Assembly (NCBI GenBank): GCA_918797485.1
Contig: CAKKNE010000002.1
Span: forward strand, 5,456,001-5,520,000
Reading direction: 5' to 3'
Origin: Pelagomonas calceolata
Taxonomy: Eukaryota
DNA length: 64,000 nucleotides
A program made the position numbers and the translations under genes. Below, piece by piece: positions 19,181 to 58,649 of the stretch (within the stretch, counting starts at the first letter, position 1; the number at the start of each line of letters is the position of its first letter). The notes beneath the pieces were generated by a model. That model had not been told where the DNA came from. It ran no database searches and saw only the letters and a program-made list of their open reading frames with translations.

Positions 19181-19405
19181 CAGAGGGGCCGCTCGACGGC
19201 GTATCTGCTCGGACGCAGCGCTGGAGGACGCGCTTCGTGTCATTTTCGCGGCGATGGCGTCATCTGAACTGTTCCGTCGCGGAGGCAGCGCTGCCAGGAC
19301 GTGTGAGTCTTTCGCGCCGATGCCGCGGACCTGTCGCGGAGAACGCGCGGACGTCTGAATCTTCGGGGCAGTGTGTTGTTGTAAAGCGATGTTTCTGTAA
19401 GGAAA

Positions 19406-20595
19406 TTAGTAACTCTCCCGCACGCCACCAACAGGCTCGTGCATCGCCTGCTGCCCCTCGTGGAACCACCCCGCCAGCGCGAACCGCGGCGCGTCGCCCT
19501 CGACCTGCGGAGGGGTGCACGTCGCGGCGATGGCGTATATACGGGGTAGAAGGAAAAAACAAACGGGCGCGGGAGACGAACGGCCAAGACCTCGTGCGGC
19601 ACGGCCACCGAGTCGTACATCACGAGCCGCCCCGCGAGCGGCGCGACGTCGCGCGACTCGTACTCGCCCTGGATCGGCGGGTCGGGGTTGAGCGGCGTCC
19701 GCAGCTCCTCGAGCCGCTGGAACCGCTTCGCGAGCGACGCGTCGAGGAAGAGCGACTGGAGCACGAAGTCCGCGTTCACGTAGAGCGTCGGCGACGCGTG
19801 GAACGGCCGCGACACGACGGCGTCGCCGACGCGCAGCGCGCAGTTGCCCTCCTTGTCGTGGAGCCGCGACGCCAGGAACACGGGCCGTTCCACGGGGTCG
19901 GCCGCGGAGGCCCGGAGCCAGCCGACCTGCAGGTCGCCGTCGGCCGTGGCGCCCACCTGAGCGTCGCCCGCGATCGGCCGCCGCCGCTCGTACGCGCGGA
20001 GCCGCCCGCCGGCCACGTCCCGCTCGTTCAAATAAACGAGCCAGGTGACGCTCCGGCGCGTCGGCGCGCGCCAGCCCTCCGTGCCCTTGGTCTCCTCGTG
20101 GTGCTCGTCGACGTGCCGCGCGAGCGACGCGCCGGGCGCGAAGCGCGTGTACGAGAACTCGTGGCGCGCCGGCGGCGTCCTTTGTAGATCTGCGCGGCCG
20201 AGGCGCGCCGCGCAGGCGTCCCTTACTTTATCCATCGTCGCGGCGACGCGGCTCCGCGCGGTGCCTCTACCTACCCCGAAGTCGCGCCACACGCTCCCGC
20301 GCAGGACGAAGCGCTCGTTCCTCCGCTTGAGCTTCGTGTCGCGCGTCGGCGCCTGCGTTGTTGCGAGGGTCGCGGCGATAGGCGTGTACGGACGCTGGCC
20401 ACAAACGGAGTACAAGCCGGCGTCCCACAGCTCCTCGGCGTCGCCCCGCAGCGCGGCGACGACGTCGCGCGCCAGGAAGTTGTCGACGACCGCGACGTTG
20501 CCGCGCGCGACGCTCTGAAACGCGTCGGCGGGCACCGATTCGAGCGCGGCCGTCGCGCAGATGAGTGCGCACGCGAGTGCGGCGTGCAGCTTCAT
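19406..20595 (-). CDS. 2OG-Fe(II) oxygenase (prolyl-hydroxylase-like); exons 20595-19582 and 19504-19406
   Basis: HVD facial triad, TWLVYLN, spliced PHEVLA|VEGDAPRFALAGWFHE; 77-bp GT-AG intron at 19581-19505. Confidence 0.85.
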
Positions 20596-20824
20596 TTGTG
20601 CAACGTGCAAACGTCGGCCTTCCGAGACGATCACTCGATCGCTGCGCGCCGCTCCGGTGCTCTCTTGCTTGCAGTCCGGAGCCGATCTAGTGTGCTGCTG
20701 ATGTGCGTGCAGTTTCGACGCGCGTGCGCCTCCACCGTCGTAATGCGACAAAAAGGGCTGTGCCGGAGCGCTGATAACCTAATATCCAGCGCTGTGGGTC
20801 GCAAGGCTGATCGTGCTGATCAAA

Positions 20825-21625: not shown

Positions 21626-22016
21626 TGTGGATGTAACTTGTATGTGGTTTTAAGCCTAGGTTGCGTCGGTGGCGTACGTGCCTGTCTTCTGTTATGGGTG
21701 GTGCCGCGCGCCCGGCCGGCCCGCGGCCAAGTCCGTCTTCAATGAAAGACGGCCTGCCCTCTAGTTTCTAGTGCTACAATTCCCGCCGGAGACCTAGGCG
21801 ACGGGCAACGCTACCCACTCCACTAGCGTCCGCTAGAGTCGTTCACAGTTCGTCGAGCAAGCGCTGCGCGTAACGCGTCGACGCCACGGCGCACGCGGCG
21901 CGTGGAGACCGGTCGCTTGCTCTACACGAATCTACCACCGTCCACACGGGCGCCTGCGTCGAAAGGGCAGCCTCGGAACGCCCGGCGGCCGCGCACGAAA
22001 CGACACCACAACAAGC

Positions 22017-24392
22017 ATGCCGCCGGCCATGTTCATCAGCGACGCCGACCGCCAGCGGAAGAGGGACGCGCAGCAGAAGCAGCGCGCGTTCCTCGAGGAG
22101 CAGCTCGCGGACCGGCGGACCGAGCGCCGCGCCGAGACGCGGCGCGAGAGACAACGCGTGCGGTCCGAGCGCGAGGAGCTCGGCCTGGACGCGGACGACG
22201 CCGCGGATTTGTTGGATGCGCGCGACCGGCGGGCGCGCCGTAATCGTAGGTCGGCGACGCCGGAGGAGCCGCGGCGCCGCGGCCGCGACAAAGAGAACAA
22301 ATCACCACGCCGGCGTTATGAGGATGACGACGACGACGGGGGCCTCGAGCCGACGCCGCCCCGCCCTCGACGCCGCCGCCGCGAGACGCACAAGGGCGCG
22401 ATGCCTGGTTTAAAGCTGGGCCGGCGCCGCCGCCGCGACGAGGACGACGAGGACGAGCGACCGGCGGCGCCGCGCATCGCCACATACAACGACGATGATG
22501 ACGACGGCGCCGCGATCCCGGGCATTGGAAGGGGCAGCCGCCGCCGCCGCGAGCCGCGCATCGCCACGTACGACGACGACGACGACGGCGCGGCGATACC
22601 GGGCATCGGGCGCGGGAGCCGCCGCAGCCGCGACGACGAGGACGAGGACGACGCGCCGCCGCGGCGGCCGCGCCGGAACGCGAAGCCGCGACGGCCGCGC
22701 CGCGACGACGACGACCTCTCGTCGCTGGCGCAGGCGTCGTTCTCGGAGGCGCGCGACAACCTGTTCGACGAGCGCCCGCGGCGGCGCCGCGGCAAGGACG
22801 ACGACGCGCCGCGGCGCCGGCGCCGGCACCCCCCGGGGTGGCCGCGCGACGACGCTTCCGACGACGACGAGGCGCCGGCGCCGCCGCGCGTCGCCTCGTA
22901 CGACGACGACGACGGCCGGACGGCCACGCCGGGGACGCCCTCGCGGTGGTCGGGGAGCGAGCGGACGGCCGCGACGCCGGGCAGCCCGCGGCGGTCCTCA
23001 CAATCGCCGAAGGCCGACAAGGGCGGCACCTTCTACCCCTACTTCGGGGGCGGGGACGCGGTCGCCGCGCGTTTGTCGCACAACAAGTCCATGCGGGCCC
23101 TCGCCGAGCTCCAGGGCGACTCGCACGAGCAGCGGGAGGCGCGGCGGAAGAAGGAGGCGGACTTCCGGAGGTTGTTGGATGAGCAGCGCCGCCGCGATGA
23201 AAGACGAAAGAAGAAGGAGGCCGACGAGAAGCGCAAACTCGACGAGAAGGACGCGGCCGAGCTCTTGGCGGCGCAGCGCAAGTACCACGCGGAGACGGTG
23301 AAGAAGTCCGGCGTCCGGCGTGTCTCGCTCCCGCCAGATGACAAAGGAGAGGGTGCGGACGACGCCGAACCGGGGCCGCCGCCCGCGGAGCCGGAAGATG
23401 AAAAAGAGGCGACGTTCCGCGACCGCGACAAGCTGCCGCGGACGCGGGGCGCGCCCAAGCCCTGGACGCGGGGCGCGCCCCGGGCCGCCACACCTCATGA
23501 TGATTTGGAAGACAGCGGCGGCCTTGAGCCGGCGATCCCGGGCATCGGGCGGGGCAGCCGCGGCAGCCGCCCGTCGACCTACGACAACTACAGCGACGAC
23601 AACGAACCGCCGCCGCGGAAGCGCAGCACGCACGACTCGACCGCAGATTTGGAAGGCATGTACCGCGAGATGCTGCGGGAACAGCGCATGCTCCGCGAGC
23701 GCGTCGAGGAGCTCGCGCGCACTTCTAGGGAGGAGGTGCGTCTGAAGCGGCGCGACCGCCGACGACCGACGCCCGACAGCGCGCGGCCGTCGACGACGGG
23801 CTCGGTACAACCGCCACCGCCAAAGCGCGCGGGCCCGCCGCCGGACACGTGGCGGCCGCGGCGCGCGGGTAGACGATCAGGCACGGCGCCGGACGACCAA
23901 GAGTTCGGGCCGCGGCGCGGCGGGCGGCGCCGCGCGGCCGCGGCCGACCGCGAGTGGCGTCATAAGGGAGAGCCGTCCCAGACGAAGTGGGGCGGCACCA
24001 TCAGTCCGAAGAAGGACCCCTGGGAGTTCAAGAAGAAGAAGCCCAAAGGGGCCGCCTTCGCTCATCAACCGACGATCCCGCGCAAGCCGCGGCCGCGCGC
24101 CTTGAAACCGCCGCCCATCCCCTTTGAAGCTCGGCAGACCGACGCTCCCAGAAGAATACGTCGTCGGCGCGGTGCACCGCCGCCGCCGCCGCGCTTCGAC
24201 CCGCGCTACGACGACCGGCAGCCGTCGCCGTCGGCGCCGCGCTACGACCCGTCGCCGCCCAAGGAAGCGCGCCAGTCGCCGGCGCGCGGCATGCAGTGGG
24301 GCCCCGAGCTCAAGTCAACCTCCGAGTTTGTGGACGACGCGCCGTTTGCTTCTCCATCACCTCCTCGGCGGACGCTGGCCGACGACTTCTAG
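22017..24392 (+). CDS. Hypothetical low-complexity coiled-coil protein (Arg/Asp-rich)
   Basis: 791-aa ORF with high GC3 and a repeated AIPGIGRGSR motif. Confidence 0.65.
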   Translation: MPPAMFISDADRQRKRDAQQKQRAFLEEQLADRRTERRAETRRERQRVRSEREELGLDADDAADLLDARDRRARRNRRSATPEEPRRRGRDKENKSPRRRYEDDDDDGGLEPTPPRPRRRRRETHKGAMPGLKLGRRRRRDEDDEDERPAAPRIATYNDDDDDGAAIPGIGRGSRRRREPRIATYDDDDDGAAIPGIGRGSRRSRDDEDEDDAPPRRPRRNAKPRRPRRDDDDLSSLAQASFSEARDNLFDERPRRRRGKDDDAPRRRRRHPPGWPRDDASDDDEAPAPPRVASYDDDDGRTATPGTPSRWSGSERTAATPGSPRRSSQSPKADKGGTFYPYFGGGDAVAARLSHNKSMRALAELQGDSHEQREARRKKEADFRRLLDEQRRRDERRKKKEADEKRKLDEKDAAELLAAQRKYHAETVKKSGVRRVSLPPDDKGEGADDAEPGPPPAEPEDEKEATFRDRDKLPRTRGAPKPWTRGAPRAATPHDDLEDSGGLEPAIPGIGRGSRGSRPSTYDNYSDDNEPPPRKRSTHDSTADLEGMYREMLREQRMLRERVEELARTSREEVRLKRRDRRRPTPDSARPSTTGSVQPPPPKRAGPPPDTWRPRRAGRRSGTAPDDQEFGPRRGGRRRAAAADREWRHKGEPSQTKWGGTISPKKDPWEFKKKKPKGAAFAHQPTIPRKPRPRALKPPPIPFEARQTDAPRRIRRRRGAPPPPPRFDPRYDDRQPSPSAPRYDPSPPKEARQSPARGMQWGPELKSTSEFVDDAPFASPSPPRRTLADDF

Positions 24393-31220: not shown

Positions 31221-31441
31221 TCCGGCACTCGAGCTGCAGCTGCTCTGCCGCTTTTTGCTCGCGCTGCGTGCAGCGTTAGGACCTACGTAGAGCCACGGCT
31301 CTCCCTTGACGCCATCGCTGCGCAGCGGTGCACCCTGTGCCTTTTGATTTAAGGTGTAGCACAAGCAATCCAGCCCCAATCTCAGCCGCGCGCGCCGGGC
31401 CCAAGGCGGCCGCAAAAAACACCAGATCTCTGTCAGCAGCG

Positions 31442-32509
31442 ATGAACAACGCCCGCGCCCCCTCCGGTTCATTAATAGCCTGCGATTCCAATGATGTCGT
31501 GAAAACCGCGAAGAACCAAAGAAAAAACAGAGTACTGGTCCAGCTGCCCGGTTTGTTGTCTCCACTAAGTGCGGGCGCGATCGGCACGCTGAAAAACATA
31601 GACGGAGAAACGCCGTCACTATCGTTAGATCTGCCCGACGGCTCGTCCCTCGAACTCACGGGACGGCGCCAGACCTCGTCAAGGGCGTTTATGAGTCTAA
31701 AAATGGGCGACGACGTGTTAGGTGTCAAAGATGTGTTTGAAACATTAATAGTCTTCGACTGCGACCAGGACTTGACAGATGCGCAAGCGGGAGACGCTTC
31801 TGCATTGAAAGGGCCCCCCGACTTCGAGTATGGTCTCTCAGCCGTCGCGGCGGCGGGCAAGGCCGCGAAGGCGCCTTCGCGGCGGTCTGGTGTCGTCTGC
31901 GATTCCAGTGGAGACGAAGAGGATGATGACGACCTGGACATTTTGGAGACGGAGCCGGGAAGTCGGCGGAGTTCCGGAAGGGCAAGGAAGCAGGTCAGTT
32001 ATAATGTCGGTAATGATGACGACGACGAGGAGGAGGAGGACGACGATGATGGAGGTGATTTTGATTTGGATGACGAGGTCCCTCTGAGTCCACCGCCCAA
32101 ACCCAAACGGAAAAAACGGGAGGAGGAGTTCGATCTCGACGACGAGGTTCCAATTAGTCCACCTAAGCCCAAGCCGAAGCCGCGGGCGCGCAAGGTCTCT
32201 GAACCAAAGCCCAAGGCCAAGCCGAAAAAGCGCGCTTCTTCGGACGACGACGTCGTGGAGCTCTCGTCCGACGACGACAAGCCAGCGCCGAAGAAACGCA
32301 AATCCAAAGCCGACTCCGACTCGGACAACGACTTCGAGGCCGACTCGCAGTCGCCCGTCAAGCCGCGGTCGTCGTCGTCGCGGGCGCGGAAGAAGGTGGG
32401 GTCGTACGCTATCGACGACGACGACGACGACGACGACGAGCCCGCGGCGGCCGAGGAGGACTCGGACGCGCCGATGGAGGACGACGACGACGACTTTGAA
32501 TTCGAGTAA
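31442..32509 (+). CDS. RHL1: RHL1-like DNA topoisomerase VI accessory protein
   Basis: DVVK..RKNRVLVQLPGLLSPLSAGAIGTL..PSLSLDLPDG..DVFETLIVF resembles the plant RHL1 core as I recall it; acidic/basic tail. Confidence 0.7.
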   Translation: MNNARAPSGSLIACDSNDVVKTAKNQRKNRVLVQLPGLLSPLSAGAIGTLKNIDGETPSLSLDLPDGSSLELTGRRQTSSRAFMSLKMGDDVLGVKDVFETLIVFDCDQDLTDAQAGDASALKGPPDFEYGLSAVAAAGKAAKAPSRRSGVVCDSSGDEEDDDDLDILETEPGSRRSSGRARKQVSYNVGNDDDDEEEEDDDDGGDFDLDDEVPLSPPPKPKRKKREEEFDLDDEVPISPPKPKPKPRARKVSEPKPKAKPKKRASSDDDVVELSSDDDKPAPKKRKSKADSDSDNDFEADSQSPVKPRSSSSRARKKVGSYAIDDDDDDDDEPAAAEEDSDAPMEDDDDDFEFE

Positions 32510-32829: not shown

Positions 32830-33564
32830 ATGGATGCAATGCCGCACACCAGCGCCATGTGGGCGGCCGCCGACGCCAGCGTGCGCGCGTCGGCGAAGCA
32901 TCCGTTTCTGCTAGCGATGCTCGACGGCACGCTGGCGCCGGTCAAGTTCGAGTACTACATCCGCCAGGACTCGAAGTATTTGCTCGACTTCGGGCTCGCG
33001 CTGCGGCGGCTCGCGGCCCTGGCGGGCGACGAGGAGGAGGCACTGGCTCTGAACAATTTCGCCGACGGCGCCGATATTGCCGAGCGGAGCCTCCACGCGT
33101 CGTTCTTCGCGGCCTGGGGCTTGGGCGAAGACGCCCTCGCGAAGGATGAACAAGCTCCAACGACTCTAGCGTACACGTCGTTTTTGTTGAGATGCGTCGC
33201 CGACGGGTATCGCGAGGGGCTGGCCGCGCTGCTGCCGTGCTTTTGGGTATACCACGACGTTGGCGTCAAGATGCTCGAGTTGCGCGCCACGACGTACCGC
33301 GACGCGACGCGGGCGCCGCAGCTCGACGCGTGGATCGACATGTACGGCGGCGACGCCTTCGCCGACGCCGTCAAGCGCTACCGCGCGCTCGTAGAACGCG
33401 CGGCGGCGGGTGCGGACGAGGCGACGCGCGCGCGCATGACCTACAACTTCCGCCGCGCGTGCGACCTCGAGTGGATGTTCTGGAAGGCGGCGCTCGACGA
33501 GACGCGATGGCCGACCTACGTCTCTGCGGTGCCGATGGTGAGCATGGATAGCATGGACGTGTAG
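32830..33564 (+). CDS. TenA/thiaminase II family protein
   Basis: HPFL..GTL..FEYYIRQD, LLPCFWVY with the catalytic Cys, WIDMY, LEWMFW. Confidence 0.9.
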   Translation: MDAMPHTSAMWAAADASVRASAKHPFLLAMLDGTLAPVKFEYYIRQDSKYLLDFGLALRRLAALAGDEEEALALNNFADGADIAERSLHASFFAAWGLGEDALAKDEQAPTTLAYTSFLLRCVADGYREGLAALLPCFWVYHDVGVKMLELRATTYRDATRAPQLDAWIDMYGGDAFADAVKRYRALVERAAAGADEATRARMTYNFRRACDLEWMFWKAALDETRWPTYVSAVPMVSMDSMDV

Positions 33565-33642
33565 TCTCTAGCCTATAAGTGATCCTGATTGTATTTAACT
33601 GGACCTTAGAAGTGACCTTAGGGTACCCCGCGCGAGGCGCCC

Positions 33643-35166
33643 TCACCGCGTCTTCTCCCAGTCCTGAGGCTGAGGCTGAGGCTCTTCGTCCGAGTCGGAC
33701 TCGTCGTCCTCCTCGCCGCCGCCGATCCAGCTGCGGCAGCGGTCGGCCGCCGTGTTCGCCGTGAGGGTCGAGAGCCACTTGATGGAGGGCCGGGGGCAAC
33801 TCTTGCTGGTGACGGGGCCCGAGAGCATGCGGTAGACCGTCGCGGCGCCGGCGGCCCGCAGTTTGTCGTGCGCCGACAGGTAGCGCGAGAAGTAGCAGAG
33901 CGAGTGTTCCATGTCCACAGCCGTAAGGGGCCTGCGCCGGCCGTCCTTGACCTGGTACGGGAACGCGAGGCCGAGCTTGGCGAATTCGGCGTCAGCGTTC
34001 TTGGCGAGCCAGGCGATGCGCGCGACGACCTCCTCGTCGTCTAGCCGCTTCGCCTTCCAGAGCGCGAGGACCATGTTCTTGGGGCCCGGACCGAAGGAGC
34101 AGAACTCTTCCATGCTCGACACGTCGAGCCGCGGCGCGAATTTCGTGAAATCACTCTTGCAGACGCCGTAGGCGAACGTCAGGAGGCCCTGGCCGCCGAC
34201 GAACTGCCCCGCGCCGGAGAGCAGTTGGACGGCCGCGCACGCCTCCTTCCAGGTCTCGGACGCGGCGAGCTCGGCGACGACGCTGTCGATCTGCTTGAGG
34301 CGCTGGTCGTAGTAGGAATCCACGAGGCGCCTGCCCTGGACCTGGTAGCTCGCTGAGAAGAATGGGCCCGGTTCGTTGCGCATGATTGGCTTTGCGAATC
34401 GGATGAAGTTCTTGACCTCCTCACGGTTGGCCGGGAGGTTGAGGCCCTTCATTTGACCCTTGGACATGCGGAACCAGTCCCCGGGCGTCTGTTCCGTCCA
34501 GCGGCGGAGGAAGTCTACTCGCCAGCCGTCCATCTCCGCGACGCACATGGAGAGAGCCGCCGCGATGCCCTCGGGCGACTCGAGCGTGAGGCCCAGGTGC
34601 TCGATCTTGGCCCGCACGAAGTCCCCCGTCACGCGGTCTCCCGAGTCCAGATAGCGGCCGACGTTGCCCCACTTGGCCACCTCCATGAGTTTCTTCCCAA
34701 AACCCCAGCCTCCTTGGCCCTCCGTCGGCAACTCCGCGGGCGGCAGCTCCACGCCGCTGCCGACGACGCGTTCTCGCGGATACATGCGGCGGCGCTGCGT
34801 CGCCCGGAACCAGAGGAACTCGTAGTAGAGCTTGGCGACGCGCTTGTCCCGCGGGGCGCCACATTCTGCGCTCGTCGGCCCGCTGCCGCCGGATCTCTTC
34901 TGCTTCTTGCGCACGGGCGTGCCGGCCGGCGCGTCGTCGTCGTACGAGTCGTCGTCGCTGCTGCTCTCGTCTTCCATCGGCTGCTCGCGGAGCAACAGGC
35001 GCTCCGGTATTTGCGTCTCTTCGCCGTCGTCGAAGCTCACGTTCCACGTCGTCTCGCCGAGGCGCTTGTCCAGCGTGCCCCTGGCAGGTCCAGCCTTGTA
35101 CTGCACCCAGGCAACGTCTCCATTCTTCCAGACCTTCGCAGCGACGCGGCGGCTCCTGCTGCTCAT
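33643..35166 (-). CDS. Tudor-like domain + aGPT-Pplase1/HMUDK-helical-like DNA-modification domain
   Basis: N-terminal GDVAWVQY..WNVSFDDGEE; KWGNVGRYLD, SFGPGP, LTAVDMEHSLCYFSRY. Confidence 0.65.
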   Translation of the reverse strand: MSSRSRRVAAKVWKNGDVAWVQYKAGPARGTLDKRLGETTWNVSFDDGEETQIPERLLLREQPMEDESSSDDDSYDDDAPAGTPVRKKQKRSGGSGPTSAECGAPRDKRVAKLYYEFLWFRATQRRRMYPRERVVGSGVELPPAELPTEGQGGWGFGKKLMEVAKWGNVGRYLDSGDRVTGDFVRAKIEHLGLTLESPEGIAAALSMCVAEMDGWRVDFLRRWTEQTPGDWFRMSKGQMKGLNLPANREEVKNFIRFAKPIMRNEPGPFFSASYQVQGRRLVDSYYDQRLKQIDSVVAELAASETWKEACAAVQLLSGAGQFVGGQGLLTFAYGVCKSDFTKFAPRLDVSSMEEFCSFGPGPKNMVLALWKAKRLDDEEVVARIAWLAKNADAEFAKLGLAFPYQVKDGRRRPLTAVDMEHSLCYFSRYLSAHDKLRAAGAATVYRMLSGPVTSKSCPRPSIKWLSTLTANTAADRCRSWIGGGEEDDESDSDEEPQPQPQDWEKTR

Positions 35167-35242
35167 GATGAGATGCAATCGCTTGCAGATTAGGCAAGTA
35201 GGCAACACAGGGGCAGCTTTTTTTTGGGAGAGCCCGAAGCCT

Positions 35243-53957: not shown

Positions 53958-54149
53958 GCAGCTAGAGCCCTGGAGTAGTTTTGCGAAGCCAGCCGGTGCG
54001 AGCCACACGCTCCGTCGGCCATCGGTCAGCCGCGTTTCCAGCTCTCTCCCACCCCTATAAGGCCTGAGCAGCCATAGAGCCAGCTCAGGCGCACGCCCAG
54101 CCATCGGCGACCCCAGCCAAAGAGAGGTCTCTTAAACCAAAACACAAAA

Positions 54150-57100
54150 ATGCGCCTCACCGTCACGGACCACACGCGGGGCGACGCGAAAGAAGTCCGG
54201 GCCGAGGTCGCGACGACGCAGTTGGGCGCCGTCGTCGAGAAGGCATTACAGGCGACGTACGGCGCGGGCAAAGCCCCGCCGCTCTGCTCCATCACCGCGA
54301 CGGTCAACGGCGTTACTAAAGCCTTCGATACCATTATAGAAGAAAAAGACTCCATAGACGTCCACCCGCTCCTCGCGCCCGGCGGTCCACTAGTTGTCCT
54401 ATTGGCGGACGAGTCCGGTGCCGTTTTTGCCACAGCGGTCCAAGAAGTCCCCGAAGGCGAAGCCTCAAGGGACTTCTTCGAGTCCGTCGTTCTGTTCGCC
54501 GTGGACATGGCCTTTTCGAAGCATGCGGCCGCGCAGGGCTGGGCGTCGGAGCCGGTGCTACGAGGCATCTCCAAAGGCTCATATAGGATGGAGCTCCAGG
54601 TCTGTCTCGAGGACAACTTGCCGTCCGATTGTACCGGAAAAGCCGCCTGCCAGGCCGTGGAAGGGAACACTTTTACACCGATGGCCTATCAAACAATCAC
54701 GCTCGAAGACACACTAGAGCAGGTCTGTCGCAAAGCCTTTGCGAGCAGGCATGGAGCGTGCTGCTGCATCCGGTGCGACCTGCGCGGGTTCCGGGCACCG
54801 GCGGCCACGGAAGTGGTCGTCGCTCTGTCGATCACGGGACGGCCCGAGCCCGCCATCACGGCCAAATTACTCGATGCGGATCTAGCGGGAGTCGCTTCGA
54901 GAGACGTCCTGCGGAAGATCCTGAAAACCCGCTTTTTGGAAGCCGAAAAACCCGCGAATTACGAATTTGATCTCCAGCCGGCGTCGGCGCTGGATTTGTT
55001 GTTTGGCCAGGCGAACCACGTCAAGGAGGGTACGGTAGATAGGTTGCTGGACGCGCCGGATGTGGTCTTAAAGTGTCGCGCGACGGACGCGGCGGCACCG
55101 TGTGGAGCTTTTCTAGACGCTTCGTTAGATGACCCGTTGCCCGTCGCGCCGTCGTTACCTCCCTCCTCGACGTTGTGTGCGCAATCTCGACGAGGCGGCT
55201 CCATCACTCGGTTAAGGCACAAGCGCGTCGACTGTCGCGTCGAGAGCTACCTCCCCGAGGACGAAAGGCCGGCGGAAGAGATGAACGCAGCTATTTCTCG
55301 AGGACAACAACAAGCGAAATTAGCACCTCTGTCCAAAACGCCGGTTCAGAAGACGCCCAGGGAGGTCCTTGTGCTGTTGCGGGACCGAGACGGCGCCTTG
55401 GCGTATGAAGCTTTTCCTTTACAACAAAAAGGCTCCATACCAGCGGTCGTCCTAGCGGAGGAAGCTCTGGCCGAATTCAGGAGGGCCAACAACCTCGCTG
55501 AGTCCAATGAGCGCCTGACGGGCCTGAAGTGTTGCGTGGGACCGCCGGGCATTGAGAACGACGCTACTACTATTATTGATACGTTCTTGGAGACGGCGAA
55601 ACCACTACAATCATCGAAGGAGATGGACCCTCGAGAATCCTTAGATGCGGTGCTCCGACGGAACGTAGAGATGAGTCGGGACGCCTTCGATAAGACCGGG
55701 AGACGATATGCCGTGTTGTGGTGCGCGTCCCCGAGACAGTTAGTTTCCAGTTGCACGGTGCAGCTCCGAGTCGTCGCGCAGCGCAAGGTGGCTTTTTCGA
55801 TGCAGCGGCGCTGGCGCGGCGTCGACGTGCTGGCCATGGAGACGTCACAAGTCGTGAAACGCGTCGTGAGCGGCTTGGAGGATGAGAAGCCCTTCGAGCG
55901 GTGGGCGCCGGCCTACACGCCGTCGGTCGCCGACGTCGAGGCCTGGTTCGCGTCCGGGAACTCCGTCTACGTGTCTCTGACTGCTTCTGATTCGACCTTA
56001 TCGACGCGACCTTGCAGGAACGGCGGCACGACGATCCAGGAGGTCATGATGTCCACAACGAGTCCGAAACGCATCACATTGGACGTCTACGCCGATGAAT
56101 TGGATGTGGAGTTTCCCTCCACACCAGACGCCGCCACGACAATCGCGTGGCGCGCCGCCTCGCAAGGATTGGGTTTCTTCGAGTCCGAGAATACTAGTAT
56201 AGACTTTGTGCTCTGCCAGGAGCTTTCTAGTACTTTGAAGAGGGCGGTCAAATCGGTCGGATATGCGGCGACGCTCCAAGCGCCGTGGGCCGGTCATGAA
56301 CGAAAATGGCGGCTGGGTGTACTTTGGTTGGCCGTTTGTAGGAAGTGTACGGAGTATTTGAGAGATGGTGCTTCAGAAAGAGACGACCTCGTCGCGAGGG
56401 TCGCGGAGGCGGCAGCCCAAGGTCTAAGAGGGAGACAGCCGGCTTTATCCTTGTTACATGCGGTCATCGTGGCTCGGTTCGCGAACGCGTCGCACGAAGA
56501 AAAGCCGCAGAAGCTCTTGGGCGTGACGGTCGAGGGCGCGCGGACTTCGGTAGAGATACGGGCGGGCATGCTGACGGCGCCGTTGCAGGGCCCCGACTTC
56601 ACGGGCTATGACGCGGACCAGCAGAAGCAGCTCCAGACGTCTCTCGTGAGGACGGCCAAGGCCTTCTCGGTTATATCCGACGATCATGCTTCATTCCTAA
56701 GGGAGAAATTACAAATGAACGCGTCGCACGACGACGATCTGTGCATGCGAGCTTTGCACGGGTTAGATGACCCGAAAGTCACGCCCATCAAATACGATGA
56801 TGATGAGTTACTTATATCGATCTTGGCTCAAGTGCCGTCGAAATTACCGTGCTTCGAGGTCGTTCCTACGCAAGTGGTGGAAGCGCCGGAACCGGAGCCG
56901 GAACCATCAAAGAAGAAGCGGAAGGCCAGAAGGCGACGACGGCGCGCGACGCCCGTCTCCGAGGACGACGAGGGCGACGAGGCCGCGTGCGCGGCGGCGG
57001 ACTTGGCGCGGACGTCGAGCAAGGCCGACGCATTAATTGAGGCGGTCGACGCGTCGGTGGCGCGCTTCGACGGGTTGTCGGCGTCCGTGCGAGCTTTGGC

Positions 57101-58649
57101 GGACCGCCAGGCGGCCGAGGAGGCGTGCGCCGCGGCGCGCGCGGCGCTCGATGCCGCGGATTGTATCGCCGCGGCGGCCGCGGCTCAAAAAGCGCTCGAC
57201 GCGGCCGACGCGCGGGCCGCGGCGGCCGCCGCGAAGGCGGCGCGCGACGCCATCGAGGCCAAACAAAGGGAGCTCGAGGCCGCCTCGGGCGAGTGGACGA
57301 CGACGACCACCAAACGCGACCGCAAGGCCGAGCGCCGGGCCGCCGCCGAGCGCGAGCGCAAGGAAAAGGCGCGCCGCGCGGCGGAGGCGGCCGATCGCGA
57401 GCGCGCCGCCGCCGCCGAGCGCGAGCGCGCCGCCGCGGCCGAGCGGGAGCGCGCCGCCGCCGCGGAACGCGCGGCCGCCGCGGAGCGCGAGCGCATCGCC
57501 GCCGACGAGCGCGAGCGCCTGGAACGGGCGCGCCTCGCGGCGGAGGCCGCGGAGAAGGAGCGCGCCGCGGCGGAAAAGGCCGCGGCGGCGGCCGCCGCCG
57601 CCGAGCGCGTCGCGCGCGAGCGCGCCGCCGCGGAGGCCAAGGAGCGCGACCGCCGGGACCGGGCCGCGGCGGCCGAGGCCGCGGCGGCGGCGGCGGCCGC
57701 GACCGCGCCGCCGCCGCCCGCCGCGTCGCCTGTGAAGGGCCCGCCGGCGCCGAAGCCCGACGACCTGGCCGCCTTCCCGAAGATGGCTGCAAGCAGCGCG
57801 AAGGCGAAGCCGGCGAAACCCGCCGCGCCGGCGAAGGCCGCCGCGGCACCGGCGAAACCCGCTTCGAAGCTGAACGCGAGCGCGGGCGAGTGGAAGCCGT
57901 CCTTTGTGCCTGCGCCGGCCGCGAAGCCCGCGAAGCCCGCGAAGGCGTCGGACTACGAGCCGCGACGGCCAGCGCCGGCGCGGGAGTCCGACTACGAGCC
58001 TGCGAAGGCGAACCGGCCATCTCGCCGCGCGAACAAAAAAGGGGCCCGGCCGCCGGCCGTCGCGCCTTTGCCGGCGACCGCGCCGACGCCCGCCCGCCCG
58101 GCGTCGCCCGCAGCCGCAGCCGCGCCCGCGCGGGCCCGCCCGGCCTCTCCCGCGCTGCCAGCGAAGCCGGCCGCGGCGCCCGCGCTCGCCGGGCCCGCTG
58201 CTCCGGCGCCGGCGCCCGCTGCCGCTCCGGCGCCGGCGCCCGCCGCGGCGCCGGCCGCGGCACCTGCGCAGAAGTCGCTCTTCGACGCCAAGGAGGGCAA
58301 CTGGGGCGACGACTCCGACTCCGACGACGCGCCGCGCGAGCGCGCCGAGCCCGCGTTTGAGGAGAAGCCCGCGGCGGAGCCCGCCGCCGAGAAGCCGGCG
58401 CGGTGGCCCCGAGCGCAAGCTCCTCGCAAGTCGCCGCGGGCCGCCAAGCCGGCGAAGTCCGCCGCGAAGCCGAAGCCGGGCGCGAAGCCCAAGCCGGCGC
58501 CCACGAATCCGGCGGCCGCCACGGCGCCGACCAAATCAGTCCCCCAATTCAAGACGGCGAAACCACCACGGGGCAAGAAGAAGAAGTCCGACCCGGCCTT
58601 TGATAGAGCCGGCTTCGAGAGGCGCGGCTTCGGCATCTTTGAGGGCTAG
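54150..58649 (+). CDS. Large hypothetical protein (1499 aa) with an Ala/Glu/Arg coiled coil and Pro/Ala tail
   Basis: Uninterrupted ORF; PAM2-like SKLNASAGEWKP near the C-terminus. Confidence 0.75.
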   Translation: MRLTVTDHTRGDAKEVRAEVATTQLGAVVEKALQATYGAGKAPPLCSITATVNGVTKAFDTIIEEKDSIDVHPLLAPGGPLVVLLADESGAVFATAVQEVPEGEASRDFFESVVLFAVDMAFSKHAAAQGWASEPVLRGISKGSYRMELQVCLEDNLPSDCTGKAACQAVEGNTFTPMAYQTITLEDTLEQVCRKAFASRHGACCCIRCDLRGFRAPAATEVVVALSITGRPEPAITAKLLDADLAGVASRDVLRKILKTRFLEAEKPANYEFDLQPASALDLLFGQANHVKEGTVDRLLDAPDVVLKCRATDAAAPCGAFLDASLDDPLPVAPSLPPSSTLCAQSRRGGSITRLRHKRVDCRVESYLPEDERPAEEMNAAISRGQQQAKLAPLSKTPVQKTPREVLVLLRDRDGALAYEAFPLQQKGSIPAVVLAEEALAEFRRANNLAESNERLTGLKCCVGPPGIENDATTIIDTFLETAKPLQSSKEMDPRESLDAVLRRNVEMSRDAFDKTGRRYAVLWCASPRQLVSSCTVQLRVVAQRKVAFSMQRRWRGVDVLAMETSQVVKRVVSGLEDEKPFERWAPAYTPSVADVEAWFASGNSVYVSLTASDSTLSTRPCRNGGTTIQEVMMSTTSPKRITLDVYADELDVEFPSTPDAATTIAWRAASQGLGFFESENTSIDFVLCQELSSTLKRAVKSVGYAATLQAPWAGHERKWRLGVLWLAVCRKCTEYLRDGASERDDLVARVAEAAAQGLRGRQPALSLLHAVIVARFANASHEEKPQKLLGVTVEGARTSVEIRAGMLTAPLQGPDFTGYDADQQKQLQTSLVRTAKAFSVISDDHASFLREKLQMNASHDDDLCMRALHGLDDPKVTPIKYDDDELLISILAQVPSKLPCFEVVPTQVVEAPEPEPEPSKKKRKARRRRRRATPVSEDDEGDEAACAAADLARTSSKADALIEAVDASVARFDGLSASVRALADRQAAEEACAAARAALDAADCIAAAAAAQKALDAADARAAAAAAKAARDAIEAKQRELEAASGEWTTTTTKRDRKAERRAAAERERKEKARRAAEAADRERAAAAERERAAAAERERAAAAERAAAAERERIAADERERLERARLAAEAAEKERAAAEKAAAAAAAAERVARERAAAEAKERDRRDRAAAAEAAAAAAAATAPPPPAASPVKGPPAPKPDDLAAFPKMAASSAKAKPAKPAAPAKAAAAPAKPASKLNASAGEWKPSFVPAPAAKPAKPAKASDYEPRRPAPARESDYEPAKANRPSRRANKKGARPPAVAPLPATAPTPARPASPAAAAAPARARPASPALPAKPAAAPALAGPAAPAPAPAAAPAPAPAAAPAAAPAQKSLFDAKEGNWGDDSDSDDAPRERAEPAFEEKPAAEPAAEKPARWPRAQAPRKSPRAAKPAKSAAKPKPGAKPKPAPTNPAAATAPTKSVPQFKTAKPPRGKKKKSDPAFDRAGFERRGFGIFEG

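Follow-up and report, generated by a model that had tools for sequence, protein, structure and literature searches.

What does a phage-type base-modification domain do in a microalga when it is joined to a Tudor barrel and altered beside its putative catalytic cysteine? The question is raised by a gene of Pelagomonas calceolata in a stretch of 64,000 nucleotides, called the window here (contig CAKKNE010000002.1, positions 5,456,001 to 5,520,000). From the letters alone, an initial annotation described a Tudor-like barrel and a basic NLS-like stretch in front of an aGPT-Pplase1-like domain of HhH-glycosylase-like fold. It noted three family motifs in order, with CY in place of the usual CE in the third, and proposed a chromatin-targeted, possibly non-catalytic reader of a modified base. 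The features are as follows (window positions).

33643..35166, minus strand: single-exon gene for 507 residues, Tudor barrel plus aGPT-Pplase clade 1-like domain of the CY branch (open reading frame and stranded RNA)
34978..35136, minus strand: Tudor-type β-barrel, residues 11–63 (model with Foldseek, profile against the PDB)
34894..34917, minus strand: basic NLS-like patch PVRKKQKR, residues 84–91, after an acidic linker (from the sequence, function presumed)
33712..34854, minus strand: helical HhH-glycosylase-like core, residues 105–485, PF18723 (Pfam, hhalign, model and fold searches)
34645..34674, minus strand: motif I, KWGNVGRYLD, residues 165–174, with N168, R171, L173 and D174 near-invariant in both the CY and CE branches
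33880..33927, minus strand: predicted catalytic helix LTAVDMEHSLCYFSRY, residues 414–429, with D418, E420, H421, C424 and Y425 (gap-free match to PUGT, conservation)

The interval corresponds to exactly one open reading frame of 507 codons, with the ATG at 35166 and the TGA at 33643–33645. The surroundings are gene-dense (GC ~64%), and the gene is flanked by a TenA/THI-4 gene on one side and that of a short-chain dehydrogenase (SDR) on the other. Stranded polyA reads from one sample cover it in all four runs at a depth similar to that of the neighbours, and no intron joint is present within the gene in these reads. First mates lie on the plus strand over the gene and on the minus strand over plus-strand neighbours; thus the RNA derives from the minus strand. 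A contig from a culture run covers 33602–35228 without a single difference to the window. A pseudogene or chance reading frame was rejected because of the transcription, dN/dS values below 1 and the conservation of the motifs.

An apparent RNA joint between 33402 and 34033 was rejected as an intron, as its sides are 21 bases long and its loose ends are foreign. At 33402 and 34033–34056, two short stretches are common to reads and contigs of another transcript and mimic a 630-base joint. At 33866–33945, transcript contigs of the same organism contain a paralog of the gene that resembles the library protein P0142. This relative has a core ~50% identical to that of the window protein and is clustered with a Pelagomonas calceolata protein. 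The loose ends in same-organism runs read, by eye, as its LRFPFQQDA. Contig depths are unfit for ranking genes, and the high depth of the paralog contig was left unused.

PF18723 (HMUDK_hel) matches residues 270–435 with an E-value of 4.7e-12 (46.3 bits, cut-off 25), and the match to phrog_2396 is weak. Profiles of 21 CY-type proteins and of 17 CE-type clade 1 proteins align at 99.9% (hhalign) over 273 columns that include all three motifs. Thus, the whole core and its motifs are homologous to CE-type clade 1. Against the profile of the 17 CE-type proteins the reading frame scores 79.6 bits, the best of 500 shuffles 3.8. Since 12 of these 17 proteins were found with the window protein itself, the Pfam match is the independent test. 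The motifs KWGNVGRYLD (165–174), SFGPGP (357–362) and LTAVDMEHSLCYFSRY (414–429) follow one another collinearly with CE-type clade 1 and contain N-x-x-R-x-L-D, the HhH G-x-F-x-x-x-Q, GPG and [EQ]-[HN]-x-x-C; the exchange of CE for CY is C424-Y425. In domain, motif order and exchange the initial annotation was correct.

The family was reportedly defined by Iyer et al. 2013 (NAR 41:7635), who are said to have listed or predicted eukaryotic clade 1 members. The literature search gave no paper that deals with algal members or with Tudor fusions; Iyer et al. 2013 may already describe this architecture. Lee et al. 2018 (PMC5889632) mention clade 1 homologues from basidiomycete fungi; like the algal protein, these are cellular members of the family.

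The model of the core, built from 61 sequences, has a pLDDT of 94.9 and a pTM of 0.92. Foldseek places three chains of PUGT, the clade 2 enzyme PaMx11 gp46, at the top of the PDB (E-values 2.1e-3 to 7.8e-3, none reaching 0.001) and SP10 gp186 first among viral models (1.1e-3). In VIA-align, ranks 1–23 are all of the HhH superfamily. Queuine-salvage hydrolases reach Z-scores of 9.2 (r.m.s. deviation 5.0, 235 aligned) and 8.9, PUGT reaches 8.1 (4.5, 218 aligned), and OGG, AlkA and Nth types come after PUGT. The HhH-glycosylase-like fold is thus recovered, with match scores that are modest for a helical protein. ESM Atlas matches scored 0.86 and serve as leads only. No significant match came from sequence searches of the PDB, whether the query was the window protein, a CE relative or the CY profile.

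The core shares its profile, motifs, full-length collinearity and predicted fold with the phage clade 1 proteins M6 gp55, PaMx11 gp50, ViI gp160 and the C-terminal domain of SP10 gp186. The branch has C-Y where these have C-E, and RHLD or RYLD where they have RELD; it lacks Y-R-L and the Asp that follows the HhH, and it has acquired Q-x-Q-G and a helical extension at the C-terminus. The window gene, furthermore, has the Tudor barrel and the NLS-like patch and no kinase neighbour. As the canonical pocket (Glu after Cys, Y-R-L, Asp after the HhH) is absent, the protein belongs to a variant branch and is not a canonical clade 1 member. Profile, motifs and fold place it in aGPT-Pplase clade 1 as a variant, within an algal branch of its own.

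The clade 2 enzymes (PF18724, ADDT) include PUGT (PDB 8Z2M/8Z2N), M6 gp51 and the DADT of SH-Ab 15599. They have the same fold class and the same Glu-x-x-x-Cys helix, but the window protein is only ~13% identical and has no PF18724 match at E-values up to 1. Profile alignments of clade 2 with the CY branch (hhalign 7%) and with clade 1 (35%) are weak. The helix itself aligns without gaps: E243-T244-I-L-C247-K248 of PUGT corresponds to E420-H421-S-L-C424-Y425, and the spacing to the preceding R-P matches. In SH-Ab 15599 the same positions are E222/T223/C226, so Cys and the Glu four residues upstream are kept and Thr is replaced by His. Mutation of the Cys or a nearby Glu inactivates M6 gp51 and ViI gp247 (PMC8989533). 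The metal of PUGT is bound by E243 and T244, and an attack on C6 has been proposed for its C247 (PMC11472151). The SH-Ab 15599 enzyme requires E222/T223 and the Cys, and its G227, directly after the Cys, acts with D238 as the switch of the donor from diamine to glycine (PMC13458397, 2026).

The residue after the Cys is Lys, Gly or Val among nine clade 2 proteins. As this position helps to set the donor, the change from CE to CY alters a likely donor-pocket site and spares the likely catalytic residues. In the window protein, the metal-binding Thr is replaced by His, the donor-selecting Lys/Gly by Tyr and K150 by Gln. With Tyr at a proven donor-selecting position, its predicted chemistry is unlike that of the phage enzymes. 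D174 is the likely counterpart of PUGT D24, a mapping taken from the weak 35% alignment. The retained Cys and Glu positions suggest that the protein is likely an active enzyme and not a dead reader, and by analogy it may work like clade 2 transferases without being one of them.

The conservation of the branch agrees with this view of the helix. A library clustered at 50% identity gave 91 matches. The motif is visible in 63, as E-H-x-x-C-Y in 45, x-x-C-E in 14 and another form in four; the other 28 are mostly fragments. After removal of 14 close relatives, 35 CY rows were counted and compared with 12 CE rows. C424 is kept in 34/35, E420 in 34/34, H421 in 33/34, D418 in 34/34, D174 in 25/26, R171 in 25/25 and Y425 in 31/35, across proteins with as little as 22–30% identity. 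In the CE rows, the Glu after the Cys (12/12), Y211/R212 (11/11) and D330 (12/12) are invariant. All of these are lost in the CY branch, which gains Q275, Q277 and W306. The pocket of the CY branch has undergone coordinated remodelling.

In a rapid maximum-likelihood tree built from 46 cores, 29 CY rows are separated from 17 CE rows with an SH-aLRT of 100; this tree is unrooted and provisional, with several long branches. Named CY members come from a pelagophyte, the diatom Thalassionema nitzschioides and the prasinophyte Cymbomonas tetramitiformis, and most members are metagenome proteins. A tblastn search with the core gave no match in 50,697 phage records. In viral contigs, none of 18 matches to the CY pattern was confirmed. 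Of five pattern matches in prokaryote genomes, the only one to pass, and weakly (E-value 5e-4), is an FGE-sulfatase-domain protein without PF18723 and was rejected. Both pattern scans require near-exact motifs, so absence from viral contigs and prokaryotes is unproven. A search for longer, fused forms among proteins of 1730–4940 residues found none.

The N-terminal barrel is weak in Pfam when taken alone (Tudor_3, E-value 0.16). It models with a pLDDT of about 80 and matches the Tudor domains of PHF1 and MTF2 in Foldseek. This model was built from 17 close relatives and used only for the Tudor domain, as the core is poor in it (pLDDT 53). A profile of eight related N-termini finds KDM4C (E-value 8.8e-6) and 53BP1 (0.0035) in the PDB. 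The barrel fold and the F-D-D-G strand pattern are those of the Tudor readers 53BP1, KDM4 and PHF1 and of the plant PTM/DIR17-like domains (PF21743). The Tudor-like barrel that had been claimed is therefore present, and so is the basic stretch, PVRKKQKR; close relatives retain a basic patch.

The methyl-lysine cage of 53BP1 consists of W1495, Y1502, F1519, D1521 and Y1523 (PMC5974088). The corresponding residues Y23, A28, F45, D47 and E49, mapped via a short profile alignment, are compatible at three of five positions (Y23, F45 and D47). Ala28 and Glu49 stand where 53BP1 has Y1502 and Y1523; a number of other alleles retain Tyr at the Y1502 position. Chromatin targeting is a proposal, and the cage of the window allele is incomplete. 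Among the 14 CY proteins that were scanned, five have a PTM/DIR17 Tudor above the Pfam cut-off, and in the diatom protein it is matched four times; many CY proteins have no Tudor domain that could be seen. The PTM/DIR17 Tudor is also present in two canonical CE-type proteins (P0092 and P0103). As these lie outside the CY branch, the fusion may have arisen twice or be older than the split.

Taken together, the gene may encode a nuclear, active clade 1 enzyme that modifies DNA pyrimidines and is recruited to chromatin by its Tudor domain, a reading to which we give somewhat less than an even chance. The Tudor domain would bring the enzyme to chromatin. By analogy with clade 2, a pyrimidine of the C5-hydroxymethyl type, either 5-hmU or an activated form, would be turned out of the DNA by the helical core. 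A divalent metal would be held on this base by E420 and H421, possibly with the help of D418, and the addition of C424 to C6 would drive off the C5 leaving group. A small nucleophile joined to the exocyclic methylene would then complete the hypermodified base. The choice of a donor or leaving group unlike that of the phage enzymes may lie with Y425 and the other pocket changes specific to the branch. The data show the gene, its transcription, the fold model, the conserved motifs, the Tudor fusion and a fast, mosaic evolution; catalysis, substrate, product and a place in the nucleus and on chromatin are inferred.

This writer of a modified base is consistent with the gap-free helix, with the essential role of Cys, Glu and Thr and the donor-setting role of the next residue in clade 2, and with the near-invariance of E420, H421, C424, D418, R171 and D174. 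The leading Foldseek matches, PUGT and SP10 gp186, and the Tudor fusions in CY and CE proteins fit as well. SP10 has a kinase–clade 1 fusion, and a clade 2 gene is undetected in Table 3 of PMC5889632, which makes clade 1 the candidate transferase of that phage. On the other side, M6 gp55 is dispensable for the glycine adduct, and the supplementary passages on gp55 and gp160 report no product of their own. That the fold works in phage 5-hmU hypermodification, as the initial annotation held, applies to clade 2; for clade 1, neither an assay nor an activity in any organism was found in the literature. No TET/JBP protein, 5-hmdU kinase or dUMP hydroxymethylase was detected among the 44 other window ORFs scanned, 40 of which were picked from 78 coding-like frames. 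The CE-invariant residues (equivalents of Y211, R212, D330 and E425) are lost, the alignment with clade 2 is weak, no structure match reaches 0.001, and PUGT is about level with the queuine-salvage hydrolases. The many CY members without a visible Tudor domain and the incomplete cage of this allele also count against the reading. For the DNA of pelagophytes and diatoms, neither 5-hmU nor hypermodified T is reported in the literature found.

Eukaryotes are known to have few hypermodified DNA bases, and the gene hints at DNA base chemistry in plankton that has gone unmeasured. As the gene is intron-less and expressed and its model is confident, both the function of clade 1 enzymes and the possible presence of such a base in abundant phytoplankton are testable in a culturable alga.

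The same cysteine could serve removal instead of addition. An eraser or repair enzyme would use the Cys–C6 chemistry to strip or hydrolyze an oxidized C5 group (5-hmU, 5-hmC, formyl or carboxyl) and would need no kinase partner. Thiol-assisted loss of C5 substituents is part of cytosine methyltransferase chemistry. Cys and Glu are retained in spite of the loss of residues that do not vary in the kinase-linked CE rows, no kinase is encoded nearby, and clade 1 is dispensable for the M6 adduct. However, no such activity is reported for enzymes of this fold in the literature found, and the fast turnover of alleles described below is unusual for housekeeping repair. Such an enzyme is unlikely, though by no means far-fetched.

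Five of 18 metagenome loci have the neighbours of the window (L006, L007, L014, L015 and L016). The gene is 82, 61, 58, 78 and 72% identical to that of the window at these loci, with dN/dS values of 0.43, 0.67, 0.70, 0.40 and 0.54, respectively. The SDR neighbour is 91–93% identical, with dN/dS of 0.07–0.09. Other neighbours have 0.07–0.12, with the exception of two short TenA pieces (0.33 and 0.9). Two core types, ~58% identical and differing most at residues 161–285, are present at the locus. They occur with two Tudor types in all four pairings (P0001, P0009, P0016 and P0015, the last a single sequence), and L006 carries a third Tudor type, although metagenome chimeras could cause some of this mosaicism. 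However, in a culture run labelled as the same organism, a contig is ~94% identical over 33636–34962 and skips the Tudor-coding part (34962–35170), where the record has a different sequence. In no 50-codon window of the gene does pN exceed pS, and diversifying selection at the locus is therefore only suggested. The mosaic alleles add a puzzle at the population level.

At L015 (645–680), the gene lies directly against a counterpart of the window gene at 31328–32506, with no TenA gene between. A two-Tudor paralog type (P0018, L012) is found in related metagenomes (loci L008–L013); like the P0142-like paralog, it looks more conserved than the window locus. Identities within groups (A 60–99%, B 91–100%, C 96–100%) were not counted as evidence, as the comparison is biased: B and C each stem from one 90% cluster.

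A wider form of the writer reading would cover all three microalgal lineages. The eukaryote-only branch would write an undescribed base at Tudor-selected histone marks without a kinase step. One pelagophyte paralog would consist of deeply divergent, recombining alleles that swap reader and specificity modules, similar to an epigenetic self-marking or antiviral system under balancing selection. As a whole, this picture is unlikely.

A defence protein would recognize modified bases in the DNA of invading viruses and trap or alter them, and an arms race would diversify its alleles. The dN/dS values of 0.40–0.70, compared with 0.07–0.12 in most neighbour comparisons, and the shuffling of three Tudor types and two deep core types at one locus are in line with this. 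Relaxed constraint on a paralog also accounts for these rates, though, and the missing excess of pN, the conserved appearance of paralogs B and C and a Tudor domain that points to host chromatin argue against it. We regard defence as improbable.

The non-catalytic reader of the initial annotation was derived from the change of CE to CY, which does not support it: E420, H421 and C424 match essential clade 2 residues and are near-invariant in the branch. The loss of the CE-type invariant pocket residues, the lack of partner enzymes among the 44 ORFs and the lack of demonstrated clade 1 catalysis in the literature would suit such a protein. However, a buried Cys with Glu and His is kept in nearly every CY member from three algal lineages, and the residue after the Cys is not Glu in active clade 2 enzymes either. 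A dead reader is quite improbable.

A base-excision glycosylase or nucleotide hydrolase of the OGG, AlkA or QNG1 type, to which the VIA-align ranking with its leading queuine-salvage hydrolases would point, is highly improbable, as identity to these matches is 6–13%, the sequence motifs are those of PF18723, and F322 and GPGP occupy, by inferred mapping, what we take to be the lyase-Lys and Asp positions of HhH-GPD glycosylases.

The rest of the window provides some minor observations. A 2OG-Fe(II) oxygenase (PF13640, E-value 5e-8) is encoded at 19243–20778 (minus strand), 13 kb away; it is not of the TET/JBP family, and a link to the gene is without evidence. The 851-codon frame at 21837–24389 (plus strand; 74% GC, strong A-over-T skew) has no Pfam match and is probably of low complexity or coiled-coil. 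The 1523-codon frame at 54078–58646 (plus strand) has no Pfam match at an E-value of 0.001. At 31328–32506 (plus strand), a 393-residue acidic/basic low-complexity protein has a weak DTHCT-like match (E-value 0.014). This protein is conserved in relatives, with 96% identity over 160 codons in L015.
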